DNA from: Alkanindiges sp. WGS2144
GTDB taxonomy: Bacteria > Pseudomonadota > Gammaproteobacteria > Pseudomonadales > Moraxellaceae
Length of the DNA: 32,000 nucleotides
Reading direction: 5' to 3' (one strand)
Assembly (NCBI RefSeq): GCF_043950625.1
Contig: NZ_CP171007.1
This document shows, in pieces, positions 2,147-29,811 of this stretch; within the stretch, counting starts at the first letter, position 1, and each line of letters begins with the position of its first letter. Made by a program: the position numbers and the translations under genes. The notes under the pieces were generated by a model. It ran no database searches, had not been told where the DNA came from, and saw only the letters and a list, made by a program, of their open reading frames with translations.

Positions 2147-4810
2147 TTATTGCACAATGGAAACCACTTGCGAGGCTTCATCCAGTGCCAGTTGCAGTTT
2201 ATGGGCAAAGGCCTGGGCTTCTTCACGGTTCATGGGTTGGCCATCGCGTTTGGTGACATAAAAACTGTCTTCGGCACGCTCTCCCAAAGTGGCGATACGT
2301 GCAGAATGGATATCAAGACCCTGCATGGTAAACAGTCCACCAATTTTTGCCAAAAGACCGGGTTGATCCAGCGTCATGATTTCCACAATATTTTGCTGCA
2401 AGGCGGTATTTAACTGAATACTCACTTCGGTTTGTACGGCAAAATGGCGTAACTGCCGGGGAATACGCCGCTCTAGCAGTGCTGGAAACTCCTCGGGATG
2501 TGACAGGGCGTTAGTCAGGGCATAAATCACCTGTGCTTGACGGTCTTGATCAGTCAACAATGTACCAAAACGATCAAGTACCACATAGGTATCCAGTGAA
2601 AACGCCTTGGCAGCGGTAATAATCCGTGCATCGAGTACGTTTAAATCCATCTGGTCTAAAATGGCAACTGATGCAGCAAACAGATTGGGCAGGTCGCGGG
2701 TATAAATAAAAATCTCGGCAGCATCTTTGGCCTGCTTGCGATGCTCACGAATCAGCACCAGCGGGTCGGGGTTGTCGCCATGCTCAATCATGGCCTGTGT
2801 GTGCCAGATCACTTCATCGGCACGTTCCTTTAAAAAGTACTCATCCCCTAACTCGCACCAGATTTTTTCAATCTGCTCATAGGTGTACCGGGTACTTAAA
2901 GTCTGCATGGCCTCAAACTTGGTATCATCAATAATTAACTGATGATCCACCGGGCGATCCAGACCGGTACGGATAATAGTACGTGCCTGAGTATATAACT
3001 GGCGCATTAACGAAGCACGCCACGAATTCCAGAGCTTGGGATTCGTGGCATTGACATCTGCCACGGTCAGGCAATACAAATAATCCAGATGCACCATGTC
3101 ACCCATGTGGTCGGCAAAGCCTTTGACGACATCGGGGTCGGAAATATCTTTTTTCTGCGCAGTAAGCGATATCACCAGATGGTTGCGTGTCAGCCAGGCC
3201 ACAATTTTGGCTTCACGTTCGCTGAGGCCATGATTGCGGCAAAATACCAGCGCATCCTCGGCACCCAGTTCGCTATGGTCGCCACCACGTCCTTTGGCAA
3301 TATCATGAAAAATGGCAGCCAGATATACAATTTCTTTGCGATCCAGACGCTGGAATACCGAATTTACTACTGGATAATCACTTGCAAATTCTGCCTTGCC
3401 AAAGCGGCGTAGGTTGCGAATAAGCAGTAAGGTGTGGGCGTCCACCGTATAAATATGAAATAAATCATACTGCATCAGACCAATAATCTGGCCAAAAGCG
3501 GGGATATATTGCCCTAGCACCCCATAGCGTTTCATGGCATGCAGCGTGTGGTATAAATGATAGGGTGCTCGTAAAATGGCCATAAACATCGCGCGGTGCA
3601 TGGGGTCATTACGAAAATTATCATCAATGGTTTTGGCGGCCAGCATCAGCAGGCGCAGGGTTTTGGCGCGAATCCCAATAATGTCCGGCTGATTGGCCAT
3701 AAAATGGAATAACTCAAAAATGGCGCTGGGCGTTTGGGAAAATACCCGGTGATGACAGACAGCAATTTTGTTGCCTATCAATTCAAAGCGTTCGTTCAAA
3801 ATAATTTTTTGTGGTTGTTCCCCATCTGGCAGGCGCGGCTCAATGACTGACTCATAAAAATACGCCAACAGCATTTCATTTAAGGTCGATATCTTCATGG
3901 CCACCCGGTAATAGGTTTTCATGAATTGCTCTACCGCATGATTGGGTGAGTCATTATCGTGCTGGATAAAGCCTAATCGCGCCGCCACATCACGCTGGTA
4001 GTCAAACAGCAGACGGTTTTCGTCACGCCCGGTGATCCGGTGTAACTGATAGCGAACCTGCCACAAAAAATCCTCAGCGCTCTCTAGCTCCTGGAGTTCA
4101 AATTCACTAATAAAACCCAGATGTACCAGATCATAAAACCGCACCACCCGAAAATGCCGCTTGGCAATCCAGCCAATCTGGTTTAAGTCGCGCAGGCCAC
4201 CCGGTGCATTTTTAATATCTGGTTCAAGGTTGCTCTCAGTGTGGTTGTGCTGGGCATAACGGCGCTGCTGTTCACGTATCTTTTCTTCAAAAAATGTTTT
4301 GTCGGTCCAGGCTGTAGCCACAATCTGACGTGGTTTTTTGGCAAGTTGTTCATCCCCGGTAATCAGGCGGGCTTCAACCAGAGTAGTGGCAACGGTAATA
4401 TCCTGCGCAGCTTCCAGACATTCACTTAAGGAGCGTACACTAATTCCCGGCTTAAACCCGGTATCCCATAAGATAGATACAAATTCGGAAATTTTCTCGC
4501 CCAGCTCCGCTTTGATTTCATCGCGGCTTAATACCAGGATATCCAGGTCTGAGTGCGGCAGCATCTCACCGCGGCCATAACCCCCCACAGCCAGTAGTGC
4601 CAGATTATGCTCAGGTAGCTCCTGCTGTTGCCAGAGCAGTTTGAGCATATTGTCCATGGCTTTTGCCCGTGCATGCACCACATAGCGTATGCCTTCTTCC
4701 CCAAGCAGGGCAGTATCCAGTTGCTGATCCAGTGCTTTGCGCCACTCGTTCAGGCCACGGTGAAAGCCGTGCTGCTCAATAAAAAGCCGGGGAGAAAGAA
4801 GATCGGGCAT
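2147..4810 (-). CDS. glnD: bifunctional [protein-PII] uridylyltransferase/uridylyl-removing enzyme
   Basis: 887 aa. Nucleotidyltransferase motif [21 protein letters not shown] domain ([16 protein letters not shown]) and two C-terminal ACT-like segments. Confidence 0.95.
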
Positions 4811-10051: not shown

Positions 10052-11455
10052 GTGCGCAGCTTTGATATTTTAGATAAAGAGCCGGACCAGTTTGCCAAAT
10101 ATCATCGGTATGTTGCTTATTTTCTTGTTTTAATCATTTTTCTGGTGATGCTGTTTAGCAAGAGCATTCAGCCAGCACATGCCCTGTTTAATATTCTTGT
10201 CATTGGCATTATCCCATTTTTACAAAATTACGCCGCTATTCAATTAAAACGGCAGTTTGGCTACGACGTCAGTAAAAATATTATTTTATTCATTGATGCT
10301 GTTTTTGTCGCTTTCTGGCTGGTAATTACTGATTTTGCTGCTATCCCCAGTCTGATGATCATGATCGGATTAATTTATGCGGCATTTTGGGTGAGAGTCA
10401 GTTGGCTGGCCTTTTTGACTATTGGTTTGATTGGTACTGCCAGCTTATATCTTTTTTGCTACTTACTGAATATTCATCAGATTGCCTTTAAGCCCAGTTC
10501 ACTTGACGTAACCATAGTAAGCATTCTGTGCCTGACAGCTTATCTAAGCATTGGTATTATTTACTTGCAGCGTCGGCTTATCTCTGTGGAACAAAGAAAA
10601 GTCCATGCAGAAGAGCAAACCAGTAAATACCTGTCGCTGGCCAACAAACTGGCGCGTTATGCACCTACCCAGATCTGGCAGTCCATTGCCCGGGGTGAAA
10701 ACGAAGCTAAAATTGATAATAAACGCAAAAAGCTCACCATTTTCTTTTCGGATATTCAGGGTTTTACCGAGCTTTCAGAGACCTTGTTGCCTGATGATCT
10801 GGCATTTATTCTCAACGATTATTTTGAGCACATGACTGATATTGCCCGTCGCCATGGGGGGACGGTAGACAAATATATGGGTGATGCTATTTTGATCTTT
10901 TTTGGCGATCCGGAAAGTAGAGGCATCAAGGAGGATGCCAAATCTTGCGTATACATGGCACTGGCTATGCTGGCAGAAATGAAAATTCTAAGAGAGCGCT
11001 GGCGGCGACTGGGATATACTGGTTTGCATATTCGTATCGGTATTAATACCGGCTATTGTCATGTGGGTAATTTTGGTACCAGCTCACGCATGAGTTACAC
11101 CATTGTTGGCCGGGATGCTAACCTGGCGGCACGTCTACAAACTGCTGCCGAGGTAGATCAGATTTTGGTTTCCGAATCGACTTATCATCTGGTCAAGGAT
11201 GACTTTACCTGCATAGAAAAGGGAAGTCTGAACTTAAAAGGCCTGAGTGAACCAGTTGCCACCTGGCAGATTGTAGGGCGGCAGCAAGGCCAATATATGA
11301 GTAACCGGTGGATGGATTTTGAGCTGGAGGGCTTTAACCTGCAACTTGATCTGAATGAGTTAAAACCCTATGAAGGAGCCAAGGCTATCCAGATTCTGGA
11401 GCAGGTGACCAAGCGCCTCAAACTTGAAGAAACAGAAAGACAAAGATATCGTTAA
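10052..11455 (+). CDS. membrane-bound class III adenylate/guanylate cyclase
   Basis: 467 aa with a GTG start. About six predicted TM helices in the first 180 aa. Cyclase catalytic domain motifs: TIFFSDIQGFTELSE, DKYMGDAILIFFG, IGINTG, VGRDANLAARL. Confidence 0.85.
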   Translation: MRSFDILDKEPDQFAKYHRYVAYFLVLIIFLVMLFSKSIQPAHALFNILVIGIIPFLQNYAAIQLKRQFGYDVSKNIILFIDAVFVAFWLVITDFAAIPSLMIMIGLIYAAFWVRVSWLAFLTIGLIGTASLYLFCYLLNIHQIAFKPSSLDVTIVSILCLTAYLSIGIIYLQRRLISVEQRKVHAEEQTSKYLSLANKLARYAPTQIWQSIARGENEAKIDNKRKKLTIFFSDIQGFTELSETLLPDDLAFILNDYFEHMTDIARRHGGTVDKYMGDAILIFFGDPESRGIKEDAKSCVYMALAMLAEMKILRERWRRLGYTGLHIRIGINTGYCHVGNFGTSSRMSYTIVGRDANLAARLQTAAEVDQILVSESTYHLVKDDFTCIEKGSLNLKGLSEPVATWQIVGRQQGQYMSNRWMDFELEGFNLQLDLNELKPYEGAKAIQILEQVTKRLKLEETERQRYR

Positions 11456-17065: not shown

Positions 17066-17710
17066 TTAGCTAAAGTACCACCAAGTATAAATTAAACCGA
17101 TAATTAAAGAAATAACAACCGCAAGCAATAGGCTGATCATAAGTTGATAATATTTTTTGACCTGACGCATCTCATACGCTTGCTGTTTGGCAGCAATAGC
17201 CATATTGCCAAGTTGAAGACGCTGTTCATCAATGCGTCGAAGTAAAGGTTTCATACGTTGCGAAACAGGCGTTACATCACTCGTGTCTGCCACAAACCAG
17301 TGTCGCCAGTCGGCAAGAATTTGTGGCAGATTAAAATATTCCATCAAATGGCGCAGCTCGATGGAAAGCTGCTCATCACCAGTGATATTGACTTTTTCAA
17401 ATGATTGAGGGCGTGCGGTAAAAAAAGCACGCATCAGAGTGACTGTAGAGGCAGTAACAGTCGCATCAATTTTTGCATTTTTTGCCACTTCAAAATCAAA
17501 TAGCACGCCTTGCGGAGCAAATGTTACATAAAAGGTATCACTGGGAAGATGGGTTTTAACGCAAATCAGGGCCCGGCGCTGGATAAGGTGTTGCGCATGT
17601 ATACGTGACATACGGTCATGCTTTAATAAAAAGGTAAGCAGTGTTTCAATAAGAATCAGCAAAAAAGATTGTATTAAATTTCGCTCATCTGGCGCCTGTT
17701 GATTAGGCAT
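17066..17710 (-). CDS. SCP2/UbiJ-like lipid-binding domain protein with a C-terminal transmembrane anchor
   Basis: The likely start is Met9 (MPNQQ, AAGGAA 8 nt upstream). The N-terminal half (ETLLTFLLKH...ICVKTHLPSDTFYVTF...ITGDEQLSIELRHLMEYF) follows the pattern of E. coli UbiJ as I recall it. The C-terminus YYQLMISLLLAVVISLIIGLIYTWWYF is hydrophobic. Confidence 0.45.
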   Translation of the reverse strand: MPNQQAPDERNLIQSFLLILIETLLTFLLKHDRMSRIHAQHLIQRRALICVKTHLPSDTFYVTFAPQGVLFDFEVAKNAKIDATVTASTVTLMRAFFTARPQSFEKVNITGDEQLSIELRHLMEYFNLPQILADWRHWFVADTSDVTPVSQRMKPLLRRIDEQRLQLGNMAIAAKQQAYEMRQVKKYYQLMISLLLAVVISLIIGLIYTWWYFS

Positions 17711-17909
17711 ACAACACTTTTCCTTGTTAAGCATAAGATTAGGTTAAATAAATAACTAGTTCTATCTTGGAGAATTTATTAATAATGTCAATAGTTTGTT
17801 AGACAAAAAAAATAGGCGAAAATGTTCTCTATGATATAGTCAGAGTAATTTACTGTTGAATATCGGTTTACGGCTTACATAGTCTTTTAAGAATTTTAGG
17901 GAGAAAAGA

Positions 17910-18392
17910 ATGGCAAAGCCAGGAAAAAGTAAAGCAGAGCCGGCACTTGGCGTACAGACCAGCACTGATGAGAGCATAAATCAGGGCACTACTCCTGAAG
18001 CAAACCGAAAAAAAAATGCGCTTGATTTTCGCAAATATACCAAACAGATCTGGCTGGCTGGACTGGGTGCATTTTCACGTGCCGAAGATGAAGGTAACCG
18101 CTTATTTGATTCTTTGGTAAAAGTGGGTGAAGAGCTTGAGGCTAAAACTACGGATATCGCTGATAACACCGCAGGCGTAGTAGGCGAAGTAAAAGACCGG
18201 GTGACCGAGCGGGTAACTGGTACTAAAGAGCGGGTAGAGCGGGCTTTGGATGAACGGGTAAATTCAACAGTTGCCCGTATTGGTTTTGCTTCTCATAAAG
18301 AAGTAGCCCAATTGGTAGAGTTAATTGAACGGCTAGATCAGAAGATAGATCAGCTTACAGAAGAGGTTAGACAGCTACGACAAAAAAAATAG
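17910..18392 (+). CDS. phasin-family (polyhydroxyalkanoate granule-associated) protein
   Basis: 160 aa. KQIWLAGLGAFSRAEDEGNRLFDSLVKVGEELE is typical of the PHA granule-associated protein family. Coiled-coil C-terminus. Confidence 0.7.
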   Translation: MAKPGKSKAEPALGVQTSTDESINQGTTPEANRKKNALDFRKYTKQIWLAGLGAFSRAEDEGNRLFDSLVKVGEELEAKTTDIADNTAGVVGEVKDRVTERVTGTKERVERALDERVNSTVARIGFASHKEVAQLVELIERLDQKIDQLTEEVRQLRQKK

Positions 18393-18993: not shown

Positions 18994-20886
18994 ATGGAAG
19001 CGTTTCGTCGTTTAATTAGGGGCTGGTTAGGTAAGGTATTACTGGTGCTTTTTCTGACACCACTGGCGTTAGTGGGAATTGAAGGTTACTTTATGGGTGG
19101 AGGCGAAGATAAAGCTGCCATTCAGGTTAATAAAACAAAAATTAGCCCAGCGGTTTTAAATGCTGCTGTAGATAATCAGCATAAGCAGCTTTTAGCACAA
19201 GTTCAGGATGACGCCTCCTTATTAAATGATGCGGCGATCAAAAAATCTGTGATAGACGGCTTGATCGCCCGCACCCTATTGCTTCAGCAAGCCAAAAAAC
19301 TGGGCTTTGAGTTAAGTGATCAACAGATTGCCCAGCTCATTCGTCAGGAGCCCAGCTTTCAAGAGGATGGTAAATACTCGGAAGGTTTATTTCAGGCTTA
19401 TCTGAAAAACTCGGGAGCATCCATGGCTCAGTTATTAAATGAAGTGCGTGAGCAGGTTGCCTTGCGTCAGCTAGCAGGTGGTATTACAGATACTGGCCTG
19501 GTTAGTCAGCAGGATATTACCCGTCTGGCTATCCTGAAAACTGAAAAACGTGATGTACATATTGCCAGTTTACCTTTATCCGGTTTTGGTAAGGACATTC
19601 AGATTACTACCCAGCAAATTACAGACTACTATAATAAAAACAAGGACCAGTATTTAGTACCTGATAATGTTGATGTTGAATATGTTGTATTAAATAGTGC
19701 TTCTTTGGCACCTCAGCTGCAGATCACTGATGCGGATATTCAGGCACAATATCAGGCATTACAGTCTACAAGTGCCAGTGCTGAAGAGCGCCATATTCAG
19801 CATATTCTGATTGAAGTCACTGATAAAATTACGGATGCACAAGCCAAGCAGCAAATTGAAAAAGTGGCTGCCCGCTTAAAGGCAGGTGAAGATTTTGCCA
19901 AGGTGGCACGTGAAGTATCACAGGATGCCGGCTCAGCAGAGAACAATGGTGACCTGGGCTTTTTAGCCAAGGGTAGTTTCCCCGGTGCCTTTGATGACAC
20001 GGCATTTGGTCTGGCGGTTAATCAGGTTTCCAAACCCGTGCGTTCAGATGCGGGTTATCATTTGATTAAGGTATCTGAAATCAGAAAAGATGATGTGGCC
20101 AGTCTGGAATCCCTGCGCCCACAACTGGAAGCACAGGTTCGCCAGAATAAGCTGGATGAGCTATATAGCGAGGTGATTAATCATCTAAATGAAATGGCGG
20201 TAGAAACTGACAGCGTGCAGGAGCTAGCCAGGGTTCAGCATTTGACTGTCAACTCTGCCAAGATGATTACTAAAACCAGCAATACTCCACCATTTAATAA
20301 TGCTAACGTTAAGGCAGCCTTATTCAATGAGGATGTGGTTCAGGGTGACCGCAAAATTTCTACCGGGCTTGAAATAGAGCCGGGCACAACGATGTGGGTT
20401 AAAGTAAATAACTATCATCCTGAGCGTGCCCAGTCGCTGGCTGAGGCAACGGCGCAAATTAAGCAAACCCTTGAGCAACAGGCGCGTCTGGCAAAAGCAA
20501 AGGCCAAGGCCAAAGCTATTGTGGATGGGCTAAAAACCAAAGCACCACAGCAGGTACAACAGGACAATCAGGTTGTTTTTCAGGGTATTGGCGAAGTGAG
20601 CCGTATGAGTGGAGCGCCTTTGGAGCTGGAGCGTACAATTTTCAGGATGGCTAAACCACAAGATGGCAAATGGAGCGCTGACTATTATCAACAGGGTGAC
20701 AATCTGATTGTTGTGGCAGTATCTAAAGTCGTGGCTGGTAATCCGGACAGCTTACAGGCAGAGGAGCGTCAGCAATTATCCAGCACGCTTGCCCGTTTGC
20801 GTGGACAGCAGGAACTGGCGGACTATGTACAGTACCTGCGCTCCAAAGCCAAAATTAAAATCCACGATGCGGATACTAAAAAATAG
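18994..20886 (+). CDS. ppiD: periplasmic chaperone / peptidyl-prolyl isomerase PpiD
   Basis: 630 aa. N-terminal membrane anchor (GKVLLVLFLTPLALVG) and a parvulin-like domain (HIQHILI...GDLGF). hupB-ppiD synteny. Confidence 0.85.
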   Translation: MEAFRRLIRGWLGKVLLVLFLTPLALVGIEGYFMGGGEDKAAIQVNKTKISPAVLNAAVDNQHKQLLAQVQDDASLLNDAAIKKSVIDGLIARTLLLQQAKKLGFELSDQQIAQLIRQEPSFQEDGKYSEGLFQAYLKNSGASMAQLLNEVREQVALRQLAGGITDTGLVSQQDITRLAILKTEKRDVHIASLPLSGFGKDIQITTQQITDYYNKNKDQYLVPDNVDVEYVVLNSASLAPQLQITDADIQAQYQALQSTSASAEERHIQHILIEVTDKITDAQAKQQIEKVAARLKAGEDFAKVAREVSQDAGSAENNGDLGFLAKGSFPGAFDDTAFGLAVNQVSKPVRSDAGYHLIKVSEIRKDDVASLESLRPQLEAQVRQNKLDELYSEVINHLNEMAVETDSVQELARVQHLTVNSAKMITKTSNTPPFNNANVKAALFNEDVVQGDRKISTGLEIEPGTTMWVKVNNYHPERAQSLAEATAQIKQTLEQQARLAKAKAKAKAIVDGLKTKAPQQVQQDNQVVFQGIGEVSRMSGAPLELERTIFRMAKPQDGKWSADYYQQGDNLIVVAVSKVVAGNPDSLQAEERQQLSSTLARLRGQQELADYVQYLRSKAKIKIHDADTKK

Positions 20887-20889
20887 CGC

Positions 20890-20917
20890 AAAAGCCATCA
20901 GAAATGATGGCTTTTTT
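20890..20917. terminator. bidirectional terminator between ppiD and the convergent 277-aa gene
   Basis: AAAAGCCATC-agaaat-GATGGCTTTT followed by TT. Confidence 0.8.
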
Positions 20918-20941: not shown

Positions 20942-21775
20942 TTATGCTTGTTTGGCGTGTTCCCAAAAATAATAATGCAGTTCATTCGTGGTTTCGGCCA
21001 CAATATTACGGTCACTTTTTAAAATCGTATCAGCACGTTTTTTGCGGGGGTAGGGAAGCTGGGTACTATCACCGTAGCGTGGTAGTTGATTTTCATGGCC
21101 AACCACGAACAGGAATTCATTTAAGCTCATCACTTTTTTGGCATGGTTGGCAAAGCGCAACGTGGCCCGATAGGAAAAGCCTGACTGGTAAAAGCGTTTT
21201 AAAATCTGCGTGCCATCGTTTTTATTTTTAAAGTCCTTAATATTTTCAATCGCTTCATTAAGCTGATGAATTTCATGCAGCAATTTCTGGTTTTCAATAG
21301 GCGCTGGCATATTTTGCTGGAGCATTTCCAGTTGATGCTCAAACCATTCAATTACTTCGTCAGGCTCAACCTTCAGGATTGAGACTGCCGGATTTCTGGT
21401 AAAATTAACAGCAATCACATCCTCAATGATTTGGGGTGTTTCTAGTAGTTTAGGAAATTTCTTTAGCTCAAAACGCGCTACAATTTCCTGGGCCTGTTGT
21501 GAATAATCAGCAATCAGATGCTTGATTTCACCCAGATGATAAGGGGTCAGTAATATCAGGCATTTAAGGCGTGGCTTTTCTAGAGATGTTAGTGACTTGC
21601 TGGCAAAGCGTTCTCCCTGGCTTTTAACAAAGGTATGCATTTTAACAGGAATCTGCTGCGCCTCAGCACGACTGCGTAAATGCATTAGCGCTTGATGATA
21701 GCTATCAAACCATTTTGAAATTTCCAGCCGTAGCAGAGCATGTTGTTCGGCTTGGGTGATTCGTTCTGGACGCAT
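20942..21775 (-). CDS. hypothetical protein; possible very distant Tus (replication terminus-binding) relative
   Basis: 277-aa ORF with its own terminator and an AT-rich upstream region. No family recognised with certainty. Collinear short motifs are shared with E. coli Tus (see findings). Confidence 0.5.
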   Translation of the reverse strand: MRPERITQAEQHALLRLEISKWFDSYHQALMHLRSRAEAQQIPVKMHTFVKSQGERFASKSLTSLEKPRLKCLILLTPYHLGEIKHLIADYSQQAQEIVARFELKKFPKLLETPQIIEDVIAVNFTRNPAVSILKVEPDEVIEWFEHQLEMLQQNMPAPIENQKLLHEIHQLNEAIENIKDFKNKNDGTQILKRFYQSGFSYRATLRFANHAKKVMSLNEFLFVVGHENQLPRYGDSTQLPYPRKKRADTILKSDRNIVAETTNELHYYFWEHAKQA

Positions 21776-21955
21776 AGTTTATCCAATTTTAAAAACTAGC
21801 ATTTTATCATAGTGTAAATTTATAAAAATACCAGAAAAATGTACAATAAATCCTCAAAACCACATTTTCATTTCAAAACAAGTCATCAACAAAGGTTCTA
21901 TAGGGTTAAAGACCAAGACCCAACATAATAAAAGGCCAGATAACCCGGGAGAATA

Positions 21956-22291
21956 ATGATGCAACTCATGTCCAACCTATCAGACTGCACTAAAGCCTGT
22001 ATTGAGTGTTCTATTGCCTGTACCCACTGTGCCGATGCCTGTTTAAAAGAAGAAGATATACAAATGATGCGTCAGTGCATCCAGCGCTGCCTTGAGTGTG
22101 TTGAGCTATGCAAGCTGTGCGCTTCATTTGATATTCGACAATCGGTTTTAAGCGCAAAATTATGTGCTGTATGCGCTGACGCCTGTGAGCGTTGCTATGA
22201 AGAATGTAGCAAGCATAAACATGAGCATTGCCAGATTTGTGCCCAGGCTTGTAAAAAGTGCGCAGAAGAATGCCGTAAGATGGCCGCTTAA
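21956..22291 (+). CDS. Cys-rich four-helix-bundle copper-binding protein (DUF326 / Csp3-like)
   Basis: 111 aa with about 21 Cys in repeated CxxxC/CxxC spacing (CIECSIACTHCADAC, CLECVELCKLC, CAVCADACERC, CQICAQACKKCAEEC). GGGAG RBS. No signal peptide. Confidence 0.75.
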   Translation: MMQLMSNLSDCTKACIECSIACTHCADACLKEEDIQMMRQCIQRCLECVELCKLCASFDIRQSVLSAKLCAVCADACERCYEECSKHKHEHCQICAQACKKCAEECRKMAA

Positions 22292-22350
22292 TTTAAACAT
22301 GGGGCAGGGCGGAGTTAGGCCAATGGTCAACACGCCCTAGTTACCTGTAT

Positions 22351-23217
22351 TTAAAATGTTGCTTCCAGGCCAGCAGGCAGGACGGCAGAACGACCAGATA
22401 ATCGCTCAAAGTCTCTTACTTCATGTGAATAAAAAATATCAATTTCATGCCCATGGCTTGCTTTTAATTCCCTTAAACGTGTCTGGTTGTTTAAGCGTGC
22501 CGGACGGTCTTTTTCCAGCAAGGTTTGGTAAAACTGTAAGCCAGGGGTGCAATAGGATTTATGCAAATCCATTTCTTTGTGATAAAAATAAGCATCTGCG
22601 GCATTAAGTAGCCATTTTTCATCAGACTGAATGGCAATGCCAGCATGCCCATGCGTATGACCAGCTAACGGTACAAGGAGTATTTCTGGCGGCAAGCCCT
22701 CTAGCTCACGAACGGCATCAAAACCATACCAGGCTTCCCCTGTGCCAGTATGGTAGACCTTCCAGTTTTTGCGGTATGACCATTGCTGCGGGCGAAAGCG
22801 CTGGCGATCAAGCCATGTTTTTTGAGAAAGGGCATAATCGCGTTCAATTTGCATCATATGCACAGTAGCGTGGGGAAAATCATCCAATCCACCAGCATGG
22901 TCAAAGTCCAGGTGTGATAGCACAATATGACGTACATCGCGTGGATTATAACCCAGGCGCTCAATTTGCCGGAACGCTGTCATTTCCTCACGAAGTTCTG
23001 GCGGCACCAGAAAACGAAATAACCAGCCCAACCGGGTACGGGGAGAGGCCACATCCCTTAAGCCAAAACCGGTATCTACCAGCACCAAACTATTGGCAGT
23101 TTCTATTAATACACAGGTACAGGTTAGGCGGCCACGCAGTTTGCCATAAGAAAAACCATCCATCAGTGCGCCACCCAATGGACAAGTAGAAATACTATTT
23201 AAATAATGAATACGCAT
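22351..23217 (-). CDS. MBL-fold metallo-hydrolase
   Basis: 288 aa. Metal-binding motif SHLDFDHAGG and a later GHTHGH. Confidence 0.8.
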   Translation of the reverse strand: MRIHYLNSISTCPLGGALMDGFSYGKLRGRLTCTCVLIETANSLVLVDTGFGLRDVASPRTRLGWLFRFLVPPELREEMTAFRQIERLGYNPRDVRHIVLSHLDFDHAGGLDDFPHATVHMMQIERDYALSQKTWLDRQRFRPQQWSYRKNWKVYHTGTGEAWYGFDAVRELEGLPPEILLVPLAGHTHGHAGIAIQSDEKWLLNAADAYFYHKEMDLHKSYCTPGLQFYQTLLEKDRPARLNNQTRLRELKASHGHEIDIFYSHEVRDFERLSGRSAVLPAGLEATF

Positions 23218-23391
23218 GATGTAATCACTTTTAAAATACTAATGGATTTGTTCTAGCATGATGCTTTCCTTGATTCAGTGTTCTATTTTTACGTTTTGTT
23301 ATTTTATGCCTTAAGTCTCTGCTTAAAACCCGGTCACAAGTGCTCAACCTGTTACACTGTCGCTTTTATGCAGCAAACAAGAGGTGATTGC

Positions 23392-23838
23392 ATGTCTTTT
23401 TATGTTTATCTTTCCGGTGAAATTCACACTGGCTGGCGTGAGGAAGTTGAACAGGGTGCCGAGCAAAAAGGGCTGGATATTGTCTTTACTGCACCGGTGA
23501 CACATCATGAGTCAAGTGATGCAGCTGGCGATGTATTGGGCCCGGAAAATCGTGATTTCTGGCGTGATCATAAGTCGGCCAAGGTAAATGCCATTCGTAC
23601 CCAAACCCTGATCCAGCAGGCGGATCTGGTTATTGTGCGTTTTGGCGACAAATACAAGCAGTGGAATGCGGCTTTTGATGCGGGTTACTGTGCTGCCCTG
23701 GGCAAGCCATATATTACCCTGCATGATGAAAGCATTATCCATCCACTAAAAGAAGTAGATGCCAATGCACAGGCCTGGGCAACCAGTACTGATCAAGTGG
23801 TTGAAATTTTATCCTATGTATTAAGCAACAATAGTTAA
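23392..23838 (+). CDS. YtoQ-family (nucleoside 2-deoxyribosyltransferase-like) protein
   Basis: The conserved start is the internal Met (MSFYVYLSGEIHTGWREEV) at 23392, with AGAGG upstream. 148 aa. Confidence 0.65.
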   Translation: MSFYVYLSGEIHTGWREEVEQGAEQKGLDIVFTAPVTHHESSDAAGDVLGPENRDFWRDHKSAKVNAIRTQTLIQQADLVIVRFGDKYKQWNAAFDAGYCAALGKPYITLHDESIIHPLKEVDANAQAWATSTDQVVEILSYVLSNNS

Positions 23839-23901
23839 ATAAATAATAAGAAATCTGGTGTGTTTTTGTTGGGATAGCTGTATGCTGCGCCAGTTTTTAT
23901 T

Positions 23902-23941
23902 TATGATCACTTATAGAAGGAATGTTTTATAAGTGATCATA
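23902..23941. terminator. perfect 14-bp inverted repeat between the convergent ytoQ-like and dsbG-like genes
   Basis: TATGATCACTTATA-gaaggaatgttt-TATAAGTGATCATA. The stem is AT-rich, so this is either a terminator or a protein-binding palindrome. Confidence 0.45.
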
Positions 23942-23967
23942 CGTGCATAGTGACAAACAGTTTAGTT

Positions 23968-24561
23968 TTATTGGTCAAAAATACTGTTTATATCCTTGGG
24001 TAAACCGCTCATGGCCTGTAGTCTGCCTTTTTTGTCTTGCCAGATAATGGCAGGAGTAGAATAAATTCCATAACTCGCCATTAATTGCAGGTTCTTGTTG
24101 AGCTGGCTTTGAATATCAGCCGGAACATTCACCAATGGTTTAATGGCGGTGCGATAATCGACAGCGGAGTTAAACGCTTTAAATGCGCTAGTGGGATCTT
24201 TTGCGCTTAATAAGGCGGCTGCTTTGCCTGCACTGTCTTCTCGAAGAATTCCAACCATAATATGCCTTACCTGAATCTGATTGTTATCCACCCAGGGGCG
24301 AACTTTTTGCCAAAACTGGTGGCAATACGGGCAGTTAGGGTCAGAAAACACATATACAATTTGTTTGGCCTGTTTTGAGCCATCAGCAATCCAGGTGGTT
24401 TTTGATAAATCCTGCCAGATTTTTTTCTCAACAGCCTGTGCATCTTGCTGCTCGGCAGCTTTTGTGTTGGTAGTGGTAGCTGCGGGTTTTGCATGACTTG
24501 CAGGCACATAAGCGGTTGCAATGATTAAACTAGTGAGGAAAGCCTTGCTGTATCTATTCAT
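23968..24561 (-). CDS. periplasmic thiol:disulfide interchange protein, DsbG/ScsC-like (CPYC)
   Basis: 197 aa. Signal peptide (ATAYVPASHA/K) and thioredoxin fold with active site DPNCPYCHQFW. Its start overlaps the stop of the upstream gene (ATGA). Confidence 0.8.
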   Translation of the reverse strand: MNRYSKAFLTSLIIATAYVPASHAKPAATTTNTKAAEQQDAQAVEKKIWQDLSKTTWIADGSKQAKQIVYVFSDPNCPYCHQFWQKVRPWVDNNQIQVRHIMVGILREDSAGKAAALLSAKDPTSAFKAFNSAVDYRTAIKPLVNVPADIQSQLNKNLQLMASYGIYSTPAIIWQDKKGRLQAMSGLPKDINSIFDQ

Positions 24562-25400
24562 GGGAGATCCTTGCTGGGTAAAAGTAGGGGGGTGAGTTGA
24601 TGCAGTAAACTGGCATGACTGAGTTCGCCAACATGGGTACTGACGATTTGACCATGCTGATTAACAAAAAATGTGGTCGGTAGACCCTGGTAACCAAATG
24701 CTGCGCCAGCCTGTGCCTGAGGGTCTAACATTATCTGTTTCAGGTTCAGGTTTTCCCTGGCGAGATAGTGTTCTACCTGCTGCGAGCTTTCACCCTGATT
24801 AATAAAAACAAACTCAATAGCGGGAAACTGCTGTTGTGCAGCAGCCAGCACGAGCATTTCACGATGGCAGGGTGGGCACCAGCTAGCCCATAAATTAATA
24901 ACCGTGGGCTTTTGGCTATATTGATCAAGCTGAATAATTTTATTGTGGCTTAATGAATGTAATTGCAAGGCAGGCAGGTTATTTTGTTGCGGTAAGGCCA
25001 CATGCTTAAGACTGGTCAATGCAATATAAATAGCAAGAAAACCAACACTAAACAACGCCAGCATATTTCTAAGGCTTTTATTCAAAAAATGCAGAACCAG
25101 CAGCCAGATTACCGGAACAATCAATGCATAGAGCCAGGCAAAACCACCGTCACGAATATTTAGGATACTCAGCGGCTGGGCAAAATAAGCCTGATGCTGG
25201 ATTGCTACAAAAATTGCTCTGGCAACCAACATGTAACTTACACTGAGCCAGTGAATATACTTTTCTGCCTGTATAAATTGCTGAACTGAAGTCGCCTATT
25301 TTTTTAGCAAAAAAAGCATCAACAGGTAGGCCAGCACAGCAAAGACAAGTGGCCAGGGCAATATAAAGATGCCCAGATGAATGGCAGAAGTGGTGATCAT
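24558..25400 (-). pseudogene. membrane-anchored TlpA-like thiol-disulfide reductase interrupted by one in-frame TAG (25296..25298)
   Basis: The ATG at 25400 overlaps the dsbD stop (ATGA). The frame reads MITTSAIHLGIFILPWPLVFAVLAYLLMLFLLKK-TAG-ATSVQQFIQAEKYIHWLSVSYMLVARAIF..., continuous with track ORF 24558..25232 (WASWCPPCHREM thioredoxin motif). I checked the frame codon by codon. Confidence 0.75.
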
Positions 25401-27214
25401 GGCAGCCTGCTCATTAAGTCCTTGGTACTAAAACTTCCGGTCAAACGTAAATGCCTTTTTTCCTGACCATCGGCCTGCAAAAATAGAAAGGTAGGCGGTC
25501 CCATGACTTGATACTGATTCAGGATAGCTTGTTGTGATCCGTTAAACTGGGTTAAATCTACTTTAATCCTGCTGTAGGATTGCAGCTTTTGCTGTACTGC
25601 CGGATTGGGCAGGACATATTTTTCAATAGGCTGACAAGCCACGCACCAGTCTGCATAAATATCAATAACCACAGGTTTTTGCGCCTGCCGGGCTTGAGCC
25701 AGTGCACTATTAAATTGTTCAAGGGTAGTTACCCGCTGCCATTGCAAACGGTCAGCGACAGCTAGGGACTGCTTGCTATGCTGATAACTTAACCATGATT
25801 GATAGAACAGGTAAATAGCCGTACCCCCTATGGTAAGGAGCAGGATGATTTGTGCGGCCAGCATTAGTGGTTTTGTTGTCCGCTGTATCGCTGCTTTACT
25901 CCTGATAAAAACATATATCCACAAGGCGGCCATATACAGGGCAATACTGAGATCAAACAGAAAAGGAGCAAGCAAAGGACGGATAAAATATAGTGCAAGA
26001 GCCAGCATAATCCAGCCAAATACATGCTTGATGGTATCCATCCATAAGCCCGGTTTTGGTAAGTATTTGGCACCAAATGTACAGGCAATGATCAGGGGAA
26101 TACCCATACCCAAGCCCAGACAGAACAGTAAGGTTGCGCCTACAACGGCGTCGCCTGAATATGAAATATAAAGTAGGCTGCCAGCAAGTGGTGCACTCAT
26201 ACAGGGAGCGACCAGTAAAGCTGATAAAATACCCATTACCGCGGCGCCCATTAAGGTGCCATTTTTTTGCCGGGCCTGAAGCTGATTAATATAATTGACA
26301 GCCCGTTGTGGTAACAGGTTAAGATCAAATAGCCCAAATAAATTAAGTGCCAGAACAATAAATAACCCACTAAACAAACCAATGATCGCGGGTTGCTGTA
26401 ATGCTCGCTGAAAACCACCGCCTGTACTAGCGATCAATAGACCCAGCAGGGCATATACTGTGGCCATACATAACACAAAAACCAGAGAAATCAGCCAGGC
26501 TTTAATACCGGTTTTATTATTAACAATTAAGCTTGACACAATAGGCAGCATGGGCAGGGAGCAGGGGGTAAAGGCCAGTAAAATGCCCAGGCCAAAGAAT
26601 AATATAGTATTTAAAATAAAGCTGCGCTGCTGAATGCCAGTTGCAATTTTTTGATCTTCTGCCTGTAGAGCGGCCTCTTCTGTAGCTGCCTGCCCGGCAG
26701 AATTAGCCGCTGATGTATGAGTACCAAAGATAGTGGATCCAGAAGAAGAAAAAAGTCCACTCTTATCTTTTGCCTGTGCTGGTATGTGTATCAGTCCTTG
26801 CTTATCAACATAAATATCCCTGGTTATGGGTGGATAGCATAGACCTTCATTGGCACATCCTTGCCAGCGTACCTGATAGGTTTGATTGGCTTGAATGGGG
26901 AGGGTAAAGCCAACCTGATTGTAATAAACTTCTGTTCTGCCGAAATTGGGATCATCTTTTGTTAATGCTGACGGTAGCTCAAGCTTAATAGGCTGCCCAT
27001 CCAGAACTACCTGAAACTGCTGTTGATATAAATAATAGTCATCAGCAATTTTCCAGCTGAGCTGCGCCTCTTGCTCGTTAAGGGAAGACGCCTGAAATAT
27101 AAACGCCTATTCCGGATTTAAAAACCGGCTATCCGCAGCGTATCCCAGAGTAGAAGTCAGGATGGTCAGTAAGAAAGTAATTAATAATTGCCAATGTTTG
27201 TACAAAATCATCAT
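25397..27214 (-). pseudogene. dsbD: thiol:disulfide interchange protein DsbD interrupted by one in-frame TAG (27107..27109)
   Basis: Hand translation from ATG 27214 gives the signal peptide MMILYKHWQLLITFLLTILTSTLGYA, then ADSRFLNPE-TAG-AFIFQ...WQGCANEGLCYPP (DsbD alpha domain). It continues in frame into track ORF 25397..26551 (FTPCSLPM, APCMSAP, C-terminal WCVAC). The TAG sits where E. coli DsbD has Gln (DQAF). Confidence 0.85.
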
Positions 27215-27328
27215 CAAGCCATATTATGAAATTAGAAGCATTGAACCATGCTTGAATTAACGCAATATTAACAGCTTACCCTCAAGCGCCCAGATGAGTA
27301 GTCCAATCATGATTTATAGGAAGCCTAC

Positions 27329-27454
27329 ATGCTGATATTGCTGGTTGAAGATGATCCATTGATTGCCCAGGGCATAATTATGGGATTGCACCTACAAGAT
27401 ATTCAGGTGGAGCATGCCAGCAATGCCAGAGAAGCTTTATATTTCCTGCAATAG
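27329..27454 (+). pseudogene. 5' stump (41 codons) of an OmpR-family response regulator, truncated at the IS junction
   Basis: MLILLVEDDPLIAQGIIMGLHLQDIQVEHASNAREALYFLQ then stop. This is a typical receiver-domain N-terminus (acidic pair DD), lost after about beta2/alpha2. The rest of the gene is not found on the other side of the IS. Confidence 0.75.
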
Positions 27455-27493
27455 ACCTCTTGCGAAAGTAAAAACTGCCTCAATATAGATTTC

Positions 27494-28331
27494 ATGAAAT
27501 ATCAGAAATTAAACCGTTTTTCAGATTCTGAATTCAAGCGCTTGGTTGGTGTACCTCGACCAGTTTTTAGTGAAATGGTCGAAGTTTTAAAAGAAGCAGA
27601 ATCACTTAAAAAGAAATCTGGGCGTCCTCATACTTTAGTTATAGAGGATCAATTATTATTAACACTCAATTACTTACGGAATTACAGCACTCAATTGGAA
27701 TTGGCTGCAAATTACCATATCGCTGAAAGTAATGTGAATCGAACCATTAAAAAGGTTGAAGATGCATTAATGAAATCAAGGCGTTTTACCCTGCCAAAAC
27801 GAAGCATTACAACAGCAGACGAACAATTTAACTGGGTCATTATTGATGCTACAGAATGTTCAATAGAACGCCCGAAAAAAAAATCAGAGTAAGTTCTACA
27901 GTGGTAAAAAGAAGAAACATACGCTAAAAGCCCAAGTGATCTATCATCCGAAGAGTAAACAAATCATAGGAGTAGATATATCTTCTGGCAGTCAGCATGA
28001 TATTAAATTGGCAAGAAAAACAGTAAAAAAATTCAAACATTTTGAATATGTTATGACCGATTTAGGGTACTATGGGTTAGAGCAAGATGGCTTTAAATTA
28101 TTGATGCCAATAAAGAAAAAGAAGAATTTACCCTTATTTGATGTTGAGAAAAAGTACAATAAAATGATTGGAAAAATACGAGTTGTAATCGAACATATTA
28201 ACAGTCAATTGAAAAGATTTAGATGTGAAGTTATTGTTATCTGTATCGGATTTAACATAATATACATTATACGACGTTTTATTGCATTATTACATTGTAT
28301 ATATCAACACGCTAATCTACAGGGTTTCTAG
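27494..28331 (+). CDS. IS5/DDE_Tnp_4-type transposase in two frames (orfA 27494..27892; orfB frame open from 27867 to 28331), joined at an A9 run
   Basis: orfA has an HTH region and the first Asp (VIIDATE). The second frame reads KKNQSKFYSGKKKKHTLKAQV...MTDLGY...VIEHINSQLKRFR (the D, D and E of the DDE triad). Removing one A from the A9 run at 27875..27883 fuses the two frames. Confidence 0.8.
28250..28277 (-). other. dif/pdif-like XerC-XerD recombination site
   Basis: The reverse strand reads ACGTCGTATAA TGTATA TTATGTTAAAT. E. coli dif is GGTGCGCATAA TGTATA TTATGTTAAAT. XerD arm 11/11, central region 6/6, XerC arm 6/11. Confidence 0.7.
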
Positions 28332-29728: not shown

Positions 29729-29811
29729 ATGTAGAATCAAAAGCCTAGAGAATAGGTAAAAGATTTTATGGATAATTTAAAAACATTCTAGGATATTATT
29801 ATTGAAGTGTT

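Follow-up and report, generated by a model that had tools for sequence, protein, structure and literature searches.

A putative, very narrow Tus-Ter-like fork trap with a highly diverged Tus-fold protein near dif in Alkanindiges-like Moraxellaceae

The window analysed here, a stretch of 32,000 nucleotides from Alkanindiges sp. WGS2144, carries at 20942..21775 (-) an orphan-family gene encoding a protein of 277 aa (~32.6 kDa, pI 8.95), hereafter the Tus-like gene. Its 3′ end is defined by a hairpin terminator at 20890..20915, which a terminator scan identified as an 11-bp stem followed by a T run and which sits between the convergent ppiD and Tus-like genes. At the other end of the gene, 18 bp upstream of the ATG, the Ter-like site TTACACTATGATAAAATGCTAGTT occupies 21794..21817 (-) and is an exact match, on the coding strand, to a conserved 24-bp motif. 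A preliminary description of this DNA had placed a dif-like site 6.5 kb from the ORF. This site is real: the XerC/XerD chromosome dimer resolution site dif, which marks the replication terminus, lies at 28250..28277 (-) (ACGTCGTATAATGTATATTATGTTAAAT) and deviates at 2 positions from the E. coli-derived dif pattern, which was matched by none of 100 shuffled sequences. The interval between dif and the gene with its site, 21956..28249, is a variable island in which Pfam annotation recognised a DUF326 Cys-rich protein, a metallo-beta-lactamase-fold protein, YtoQ, a thioredoxin/DsbD cluster and an IS fragment, the last of which abuts dif. Elsewhere, the same interval contains tellurite-resistance genes, GmrSD and dynamin-like genes, P450/AraC genes or VapBC, or is shorter than 1 kb. 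In A. hydrocarboniclasticus, the 24-bp site and the 5′ end of the gene are duplicated and flank an 18-kb island.

The ORF has 22 homologues with identities of 65-79%, none of them named, and the family is found in Alkanindiges-like Moraxellaceae only. A profile search run exhaustively over 1.84 billion representative proteins returned the family's own cluster and one fragment, without bridging relatives. No confident match to an unrelated family was obtained in Pfam, NCBIfam, PADLOC or the PDB, the latter searched with both the single sequence and the family profile, and searches for a defence origin (PADLOC among them) gave no matches. The ORF is under purifying selection (dN/dS ~0.1 in the comparison with the L002 homologue), and the pI within the family spans 6.5-9.3, Tus being more basic (9.6). 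Homologues always adjoin ppiD, and the ppiD-hupB-phasin-isc neighbourhood is kept in all lineages despite saturated synonymous sites. Wherever dif was within the fetched DNA, it was located 0.3-19 kb from the gene, always on the same side, and in several lineages the distance was 0.3-1 kb. The terminus-adjacent position pointed out for this ORF is shared by these homologues, and a check for scattered copies found none in the plasmid and phage collections.

Remote homology to E. coli Tus, and with it a possible role in fork arrest, had been proposed on the basis of seven short collinear motifs. All seven ORF motifs are present at the residue numbers given in the preliminary description, and the Tus motifs quoted there are also correct in sequence and numbering (VRLPGVL 92, ARFE 138, LPGL 147, ITLNAYRTLTV 151, ATLRFGWANKH 166, KIKR 229 and RLHLY 302). 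At the level of primary sequence, the resemblance between the ORF and Tus is no more than marginal. BLASTP yielded a top segment with E 0.014 in a single comparison, outside the listed motifs, while Smith-Waterman alignment gave z = 3.6, with 2 of 300 shuffles equally good, and global alignment z = 3.1. The optimal pairwise alignment, which is a sequence alignment only, pairs the invariant R101-F102-E103...P108 of the ORF with Tus R139-F140-E141...P148-G149, a resemblance in which the spacing is off by 2 residues. When the family profile was compared with a 10-sequence Tus alignment, hhalign returned a probability of 0.05 (E 0.84) in local mode and no match in global mode. Searches of PDB sequences with the ORF and with the family profile did not retrieve Tus either. 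Pfam Ter (PF05472) matched 0 of the 22 family members at E <= 10; the positive controls gave 1.7e-136 for E. coli Tus and ~1e-46 for the IncC and Pseudoalteromonas plasmid Tus proteins. Similarity to the Ter profile was thus the part of the proposed homology that failed.

The predicted structure gave a different result. The AlphaFold (AF2) model of the ORF, built on a shallow alignment (Neff ~1.6), had a pLDDT of 75 and a pTM of 0.58. In the Foldseek comparison with the PDB, ranks 1-4 were all occupied by E. coli Tus (4xr2, 1ecr, 4xr0 and 4xr1), with E 1e-7 to 7e-7, probability 1.0 and 279-321 aligned columns, and these were the only matches with E < 0.01, so that the structural comparison singles out Tus. 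The non-Tus entry at rank 5 had E 0.014. The top match in the viral library had E 0.046, which places Foldseek noise five orders of magnitude from the Tus matches. By these matches, the ORF model has the Tus fold, in which long inter-domain beta-strands join two alpha+beta domains, with the caveat that its pLDDT is 75 and its TM-scores against Tus are 0.35-0.41 (rmsd 9-10 Å); in the model, a differing domain orientation could explain the low TM-score. Helices and strands follow the same order as in Tus over the whole length, except for one deletion corresponding to Tus residues 41-92 (helix alpha-2), whose equivalent in the ORF is a short conserved segment, disordered in the model. Genuine Tus, modelled with a shallow alignment as a secondary-structure reference, reached a pLDDT of 42, indicating that AF2 was not simply recalling Tus. 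The usable elements of this reference were the helices and three strands, and the remaining topology used in the mapping was taken to be that of 1ECR.

Residues most invariant in the family are concentrated in two long beta-hairpins (115-135 and 190-208) and in the basic segments K67-K71 and R244-R247. The hairpins correspond to the inter-domain strands of Tus, which contact DNA. When the seven motifs were placed on this mapping, their collinearity held in part: PRLKCLIL, ARFE, FPKL and ELHYY fall in equivalent elements, and the fourth motif does so partly, whereas ATLRF and RKKR/KIKR do not. ATLRF belongs to the second beta-hairpin in the ORF and to the first hairpin in Tus, and its earlier assignment as the equivalent of the DNA-contacting strand is probably wrong. 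Judged from the model, the ATLRF and RKKR/KIKR resemblances are probably coincidences. Remote homology to Tus itself is supported by the fold match, by the position of the homologues and by the 24-bp site, profile similarity being the exception. The product of the ORF is most likely a Tus relative that has diverged very far.

Alignment of the DNA upstream of six homologous loci revealed the 24-bp site as the only strongly conserved block in an otherwise diverged region. The block, yTACACTAkGATAwwAnnnTAGTw, is invariant among genomes whose synonymous sites have reached saturation, and it was found upstream of the Tus-like gene in every homologous locus fetched. The motif is asymmetric, its sole symmetry being a 4-bp inverted repeat (ACTA...TAGT). 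In the window, TTACACTATGATAAAATGCTAGTT had a PWM score of 43.6 bits, compared with a shuffle maximum of 7.5. In E. coli, TerB occupies a comparable position, on the coding strand 11 bp before the tus ATG, and TTACACTATGATAAAATGCTAGTT is, by its placement, a candidate binding and autoregulation site. Related genomes contain about 3-5 exact copies each, all near dif, and matches to the motif are bimodally distributed, with either 0-2 or at least 5 mismatches. An exact-match scan of 596 Gb of species-representative genomes recovered 39 stretches with the motif. Alkanindiges-clade genomes accounted for 19 of them, with 21 exact sites; the other 20 were one-off matches in unrelated taxa, about the number expected by chance. 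Recurrent exact copies are thus restricted to the Alkanindiges clade, with isolated single matches elsewhere, in a scan limited to exact pattern matches that would miss degenerate copies in other taxa.

Other identities for the motif were considered. It is not a known RNA family, as the window contains no Rfam match. A role as a promoter was discarded: a promoter scan found no sigma-70-like promoter on the gene's strand at this place, and the additional copies in related genomes are located between convergent gene ends, which means that they are not promoters. Neither is the motif an E. coli-type Ter. It is a different sequence from the Ter consensus (the GTTGTAAC core with its GC(6) base pair), and the window shows no excess of the E. 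coli-type Ter pattern, with 5 matches where chance predicts 5.9. A hand alignment of the motif with TerB gives 11 identities out of 20 in AT-rich sequence, an observation that we do not count as evidence. We also set aside a weak match to the motif at 17818-17851 (9.1 bits), conserved across species, which is probably the operator of another regulator because it lies in a divergent promoter region and in the wrong orientation.

We compared the orientation of the sites with the position of dif. The dif 28-mer is identical in A. hydrocarboniclasticus, and most related loci have its 22-bp core in the syntenic position, L055 showing one mismatch. GC skew changes from positive to negative across dif in the window and in five related loci. 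In the related genomes, the orientation of the motif switches exactly at dif, gene-side copies pointing one way and copies beyond dif the other. On scaffold JHUX01000003, A. illinoisensis DSM 15370 has gene-side sites at 766105(-), 867903(-) and 878459(-), dif at 879414 and sites beyond it at 881648(+) and 890179(+). The arrangement in A. hydrocarboniclasticus is 20866(-), 31503(-) and 49431(-), dif at 50473, then 52850(+) and 61432(+), and in MAG PMG_235 it is 10483(-), dif at 11151, then 12005(+) and 19366(+). In L055, which carries the most divergent homologue and whose locus is oppositely oriented, the gene-side site is at 3238(+), dif at 2390 and the site beyond it at 1730(-). Opposed groups of sites therefore surround dif in four lineages, with the innermost opposed pair 1.5-3.4 kb apart, and sites extend up to 113 kb from dif, on both arms, at conserved syntenic positions. 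In the L004 and L006 lineages, the gene-adjacent site was the only one within 10 kb. Because corresponding sites of different species go back to a common ancestor, these data represent ~5 independent observations of orientation and not twenty.

Within the 32-kb window, the gene-adjacent site is the only intact copy. The first site of opposite orientation beyond dif, ACATTCTAGGATATTATTATTGAA at 29783..29806 (+) in the DUF2058/pyrF intergenic region, is decayed: it agrees with the motif at 15 of 21 specified positions, retains CTAGGATATTAT and has a PWM score below 8 bits, compared with at least 32 for intact sites. At the corresponding place, A. hydrocarboniclasticus, two A. illinoisensis strains, MAG PMG_235 and MAG OH_PBrB_6 have intact sites, with which it could be aligned. 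The fdx-side site is absent from the genome of the window. As a consequence, the two-sided arrangement rests on the related genomes.

Taken together, these findings make it probable, in our judgement, that a very diverged Tus-fold protein binds sites at the terminus and forms a cryptic and very narrow Tus-Ter-like fork trap. The firm parts of this reading are the match to the Tus fold, the location at the terminus and, for the motif, its conservation, its restriction to the clade, its clustering and its polarity. According to the proposed mechanism, the protein would bind the asymmetric 24-bp site as a monomer and, at the site 18 bp upstream of its own start codon, would probably repress transcription of its own gene, as Tus does at TerB. 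Bound sites would act as one-way barriers to the replicative helicase DnaB. We infer the orientation of the barriers from the fact that, with the opposite one, forks would be stopped before they reach the terminus. Forks would then pass the sites of their own arm, cross dif and halt at the first opposing site, and termination would be confined to the 1.5-3.4 kb interval around dif. Such a layout would be that of a 'type I' fork trap, in which the innermost Ter adjoins tus, but far narrower than any described. The more specific proposal that Alkanindiges-like Moraxellaceae have a working trap, made of a Tus-fold protein unrecognisable by sequence and a new Ter sequence, with termination essentially at dif owing to the close spacing of the innermost opposing sites, we favour only slightly.

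A protein with the Tus fold might also bind these sites without arresting forks, for instance as an autoregulated transcription factor with a small regulon, as an organiser of the terminus region or as a polar modulator of FtsK/XerCD activity near dif. In that case, site orientation would have a purpose other than a block to DnaB. One site overlaps the promoter region of the gene itself, all of them are intergenic and near dif, their sequence is unrelated to Ter and the residues of the C(6) lock pocket of Tus (I79, F140, H144 and G149) could not be mapped in the ORF, all of which agrees with such a role. In addition, FtsK-orienting sequences likewise flip their polarity at dif. We nevertheless consider this explanation unlikely. 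A transcription factor would have nothing to regulate at several of the sites, which are flanked by convergent 3′ gene ends, and the known terminus organisers, MatP for example, act at palindromic sites scattered across hundreds of kb and not at a handful of asymmetric ones. To our knowledge, the Tus fold is known from replication terminator proteins only. Finally, opposed polar sites that bracket dif, one of them by the gene, are the described layout of a type I fork trap (PMC8707476).

The likeness to Tus could, on the other hand, be an artefact of an AlphaFold model from a shallow alignment combined with a low-TM Foldseek match. The ORF would then be an unrelated lineage-specific orphan, and the motif would be bound by another factor or be a lineage-specific repeat. 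The hhalign probability of 0.05, the 0/22 result with Pfam Ter, the TM-scores of 0.35-0.41, the Neff of ~1.6 and the fact that two of the best motifs in the preliminary description are not collinear with the fold mapping speak for this possibility. What makes it improbable is that, in two libraries, the four Tus entries are separated from the Foldseek noise by five orders of magnitude, that AF2 gave genuine Tus a pLDDT of only 42 with a shallow alignment, that the motif lies beside the gene in every lineage and is restricted with it to the same clade, and that its copies have opposite polarity across dif. These genomic observations would not be expected from a chance fold match. Least probable of all, and very doubtful, is that gene and sites are the cargo or the ends of an element of the IMEX type that integrates at dif, with no function in chromosome maintenance. 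The interval between gene and dif is indeed a hot spot of differing islands, with the IS fragment next to dif in the window and the duplication around the 18-kb island of A. hydrocarboniclasticus. Yet the islands vary while the gene and the sites stay put: the ppiD-hupB-phasin-isc neighbour is constant despite synonymous saturation, the sites reach both arms at syntenic positions as far as 113 kb from dif, and plasmid and phage collections are devoid of homologues.

A Tus-fold fork trap at this locus would place a Tus-type trap in a bacterial family without a known one. Fork traps are presented in reviews as the speciality of few groups, with Tus in a limited set of lineages and RTP in some Bacillus (PMC10331603). 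Most bacteria are assumed to lack one. Such traps may be under-counted because their proteins diverge beyond recognition, and, if our interpretation is true, Tus-type traps arose earlier, or are spread more widely, than one would conclude from sequence-based surveys. The trap, centred on dif, would also be narrower than all those described so far and would bear on the debate over a link between the position of termination, dimer resolution and the GC-skew switch. As a second and very diverged Tus-Ter pair, it would provide a test case for the generality of the base-flipping lock. The proposal is directly testable, since the components have all been identified: the protein, the 24-bp site and, in A. 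illinoisensis DSM 15370, a type strain that can be cultured.

Four known systems invite comparison. MatP-matS resembles the present one in that a site-specific DNA-binding protein, here inferred, has its sites concentrated around dif. matS is a 13-bp palindrome without polarity, present in ~23 copies over ~800 kb, unlike the 24-bp motif, which is not palindromic, is polar relative to dif and occurs in about 3-5 exact copies per genome, and the predicted fold is Tus-like and not that of MatP. As with RTP-Ter of Bacillus subtilis, this would be a polar terminus trap that evolved outside Enterobacterales. RTP itself, a small dimer of the winged-helix type, recognises paired A and B sites, whereas the ORF model does not have the winged-helix dimer fold and the site architecture also differs; the list of the 50 best Foldseek PDB matches contains no RTP structure, and the ORF has no Pfam match. 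E. coli Tus-Ter (PF05472 / IPR008865; PDB 1ECR, 2I06, 4XR0-2) is the only significant structural match to the ORF. The two systems share an apparently monomer-sized protein (~30 kDa), an asymmetric site of ~23-24 bp located on the coding strand a short distance upstream of the gene for the protein and, in the related genomes, oppositely oriented groups of sites flanking dif. They differ in that the ORF has no detectable sequence or profile similarity to Tus, with the region of Tus 41-92 (helix alpha-2) replaced, and in that its site is unrelated to the GTTGTAAC core. According to reviews, Tus homologues occur in Enterobacterales, Aeromonadales and Pseudoalteromonas only (PMC10331603), and the host of the ORF belongs to Moraxellaceae. 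The type I, or 'ancestral', Tus-dependent trap was described in Edwardsiella tarda, Dickeya paradisiaca and other Enterobacterales (Toft et al. 2021, PMC8707476), whose protein and site sequences have no recognisable relation to those reported here. In type I traps the innermost Ter adjoins tus (PMC8707476). Similarly, the innermost site on one side adjoins the Tus-like gene, the sites are few, and dif and the GC-skew switch fall between the innermost pair, which spans 1.5-3.4 kb compared with 18 kb in the narrowest trap described and 56 kb in E. tarda (PMC8707476).

The orphan gene was confirmed as an ORF of 277 aa at window 20942-21775 (-). Its 22 relatives (65-79% identity), none of which bears a name, belong without exception to Alkanindiges species, to MAGs of Moraxellaceae or to metagenomes. 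When 1.84 billion representative proteins were searched exhaustively with an HMM, the only matches were the cluster of the family itself and a single fragment, and searches of plasmids, phages and defence-system models with the family gave 0 matches. The dN/dS was ~0.1 against A. hydrocarboniclasticus, while dS was saturated against more distant family members; judged from these substitutions, purifying selection on the gene is strong.

The preliminary description had listed seven motifs collinear with E. coli Tus. With E. coli K-12 tus as the reference, all the listed Tus motifs and residue numbers proved correct, as did the coordinates given for all seven in the orphan ORF. Taken as sequence similarity, the resemblance is marginal: BLASTP of the single pair gave a best segment at E 0.014, Smith-Waterman alignment a z of 3.6 with 2 of 300 shuffles equally good, and hhalign between the family profile and one built from 10 Tus sequences, plasmid Tus proteins at 25-30% identity among them, a probability of 0.05, with no match in global mode. 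None of the 22 family members matched Pfam Ter (PF05472) at E ≤ 10, positive controls scoring 1e-46 to 1e-136, and the profile comparison suggested in that description came out negative.

The suggested structural comparison favoured Tus. An AlphaFold2 model was built from the 22-sequence family alignment (pLDDT 75, pTM 0.58), and Foldseek placed E. coli Tus at ranks 1-4 of the PDB (4xr2, 1ecr, 4xr0 and 4xr1; E 1e-7 to 7e-7, probability 1.0, 279-321 aligned columns), with rank 5 at E 0.014; the best match in a viral structure library had E 0.046. The modelled elements are helix 8-39, strands 44-51 and 69-76, helix 78-102, hairpin 115-135, helices 138-154 and 163-185, hairpin 190-208 and, last, the C-terminal strands. 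Those of Tus, from a control model and, for strands that this left out, from the 1ECR structure, are helix 2-28, strands 32-40 and 93-102, helices 104-131 and 136-146, hairpin ~150-180, helices 183-195 and 205-220, hairpin ~227-246 and again C-terminal strands. In the model, the order of elements matches that of Tus over the whole chain, with a single deletion of Tus residues 41-92 on secondary-structure mapping. In this mapping PRLKCLIL, ARFE, FPKL and ELHYY occupy equivalent elements and IAVNF does so partly, whereas the second hairpin carries ATLRF here and the first hairpin carries it in Tus, so that its match is probably coincidence. RKKR/KIKR likewise falls in non-equivalent elements. 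As far as the model goes, part of the motif table, the strongest motif included, is thus probably coincidental. Residues that vary least across the family fall in both hairpins and in the basic segments K67-K71 and R244-R247, the places at which a Tus-like protein would touch DNA.

The dif-like site (dif being the XerC/XerD dimer-resolution site) is real: ACGTCGTATAATGTATATTATGTTAAAT, at 28250-28277 (-) and 6.5 kb from the orphan gene in the window, had no equivalent in 100 shuffles. On the other side of the gene, ppiD (18994-20886), convergent with it, is preceded by hupB and a gene for a phasin; the isc operon lies farther out, and this arrangement is kept in every related locus. Towards dif follow, in order, a variable island, dif, DUF1275 or DUF2058, pyrF, lapA and ihfB. 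Elsewhere dif lies ~0.3 kb (L057) and ~1.5 kb (L056) from the gene in two further related loci, ~0.7 kb in MAG PMG_235, ~0.9 kb in L055, which carries the most divergent homologue, ~1 kb in A. illinoisensis, 5.8 kb in L006 and 19 kb in A. hydrocarboniclasticus, where an 18-kb tellurite-resistance island intervenes. GC skew changes across dif in the window and five related loci, from positive on the left to negative or close to zero on the right. The homologues, whose constant location near the terminus the preliminary description had proposed to check, therefore map there in all eight loci, 0.3-19 kb from dif.

The gene-dif interval (window 21956-28249) is an integration hot spot whose cargo differs by genome (L002, L004, L006, L008, L009, L055-L057): a DUF326 Cys-rich protein, an MBL-fold protein, YtoQ and a thioredoxin/DsbD cluster in the window, a TerD/TerC tellurite-resistance cluster in A. 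hydrocarboniclasticus (L002), GmrSD and dynamin-like defence genes in L004, P450, ferredoxin reductase and AraC genes in L006, and VapBC in A. illinoisensis. A frameshifted IS transposase (27494-28331; HTH_Tnp_4 then DDE_Tnp_1) directly abuts dif; its second ORF (27936-28331) spans the site, the Pfam match stopping short of it, and the whole probably represents an IS remnant that landed alongside dif. Between the phasin gene and iscR, a 222-aa ORF without Pfam match (17066-17734, -), kept at 214-222 aa in every related locus, is another lineage-conserved protein with no assigned function.

Alignment of the DNA upstream of the orphan gene from six loci revealed one invariant block in otherwise diverged sequence. 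In the window this Ter-like site, TTACACTATGATAAAATGCTAGTT, lies at 21794-21817 (-), 18 bp upstream of the ATG, compared with 11 bp for E. coli TerB, on the same strand as tus. Locus scans found extra copies at 0-2 mismatches, the next-best matches having at least 5. An exact-pattern scan with TACACTAKGATAWWANNNTAGT over 596 Gb of species-representative genomes matched 39 stretches, 19 of them, with 21 sites, in Alkanindiges-clade genomes; the remaining 20 were single matches in unrelated taxa, about the chance expectation. The consensus, aaAWyTACACTAkGATAwwAnnnTAGTwnTT, is asymmetric except for a 4-bp ACTA/TAGT inverted repeat and unlike the E. coli Ter core; E. coli-type Ter patterns occurred in the window at chance level only.

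In A. illinoisensis DSM 15370 (1.78-Mb scaffold) sites lie at 766105(-), 867903(-) and 878459(-, adjoining the gene), dif at 879414, and beyond it 881648(+) and 890179(+). The corresponding positions are 20866(-), 31503(-, adjoining the gene) and 49431(-), dif 50473, then 52850(+) and 61432(+) in A. hydrocarboniclasticus; 10483(-, adjoining the gene), dif 11151, 12005(+) and 19366(+) in MAG PMG_235; and 1730(-), dif 2390 and 3238(+, adjoining the gene) in L055. In four lineages the switch in orientation thus falls exactly at dif, with 1.5-3.4 kb between the innermost opposed sites. In L004 and L006, which carry homologues of 65-70% identity, the gene-adjacent site alone was found within 10 kb, with none in 3.9 kb beyond dif in L006, so the outer-site layout may differ among sub-clades. 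In the window, the gene-adjacent site (43.6 bits; next-best 9.1, shuffle maximum 7.5) is the sole intact one. The first site beyond dif, intact in the DUF2058/pyrF spacer of five related genomes, is decayed here (29783-29806, ACATTCTAGGATATTATTATTGAA; 15 of 21 specified positions match), and the fdx-side site is absent. The window covers only 3.7 kb past dif.

In A. hydrocarboniclasticus contig28, a segment of ~90 bp occurs twice, comprising the Ter-like site and leader plus about 12 initial codons of the Tus-like gene (stretches L029:1310-1550, ~49431, and L035:7380-7620, ~31503). The copy that lies 1 kb from dif has CTG in place of ATG, and its counterpart is at the intact gene; as the two flank the 18-kb tellurite island, this seemingly inserted at the gene's 5' end, the dif-proximal site being retained. 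Separately, a near-palindromic block at 17818-17851 (+), GTTCTCTATGATATAGTCAGAGTA, between the 17066-17734 ORF and the phasin gene (17910-18392), has conserved counterparts at the equivalent position in L002, L004 and L006. With the Ter-like motif it has CTATGATA in common (only ~9 bits, opposite orientation); it is probably the operator of another regulator, within a divergent promoter region.

These results are best explained by a Tus-fold protein acting with opposed Ter-like sites as a fork trap. A monomer would bind the asymmetric site, probably repressing its own gene from the adjacent copy, and with the opposed sites would form a type I trap, the layout with the innermost Ter adjoining tus (PMC8707476). 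We infer the trap orientation because one-way barriers facing the other way would halt forks short of the terminus; binding, polar arrest and any base-flipping lock are putative. The most likely rival is that the protein has the Tus fold but serves in regulation or terminus organisation instead of arresting forks; several copies of the motif lie between convergent gene ends (fdx/guanylate cyclase gene, pyrF/DUF2058) and so cannot be promoters. Next comes a false structural match, the motif being bound by another factor. TM-scores against Tus were low (0.35-0.41), as could be expected if the two domains of a protein that clamps DNA were oriented differently. The control, a genuine E. coli-type Tus modelled by AlphaFold2 without templates from only 8 close homologues, reached a pLDDT of 42 against 75 for the orphan protein with 22 sequences, so the orphan model is not simply training recall of Tus. 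Least likely is that gene and sites are mobile-element cargo, a reading contradicted by the synteny kept despite saturated synonymous divergence and by the family's absence from plasmids and phages.

The Tus idea holds up well. It is a specific claim that can be tested in a type strain amenable to culture, and it suggests that some fork traps may go uncounted because their proteins diverge past sequence recognition. In reviews, Tus homologues are confined to Enterobacterales, Aeromonadales and Pseudoalteromonas (PMC10331603), and our literature search found no published fork trap for Alkanindiges, Acinetobacter or Moraxellaceae. The proposed Alkanindiges trap (1.5-3.4 kb) would be much narrower than the Enterobacterial-type traps of 18-56 kb (PMC8707476). 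It resembles Tus-Ter in predicted fold, layout and proposed way of working but differs in that the family falls outside PF05472 and the site departs from the Ter consensus, which points to a cryptic Tus-type trap with a new specificity in a new lineage.
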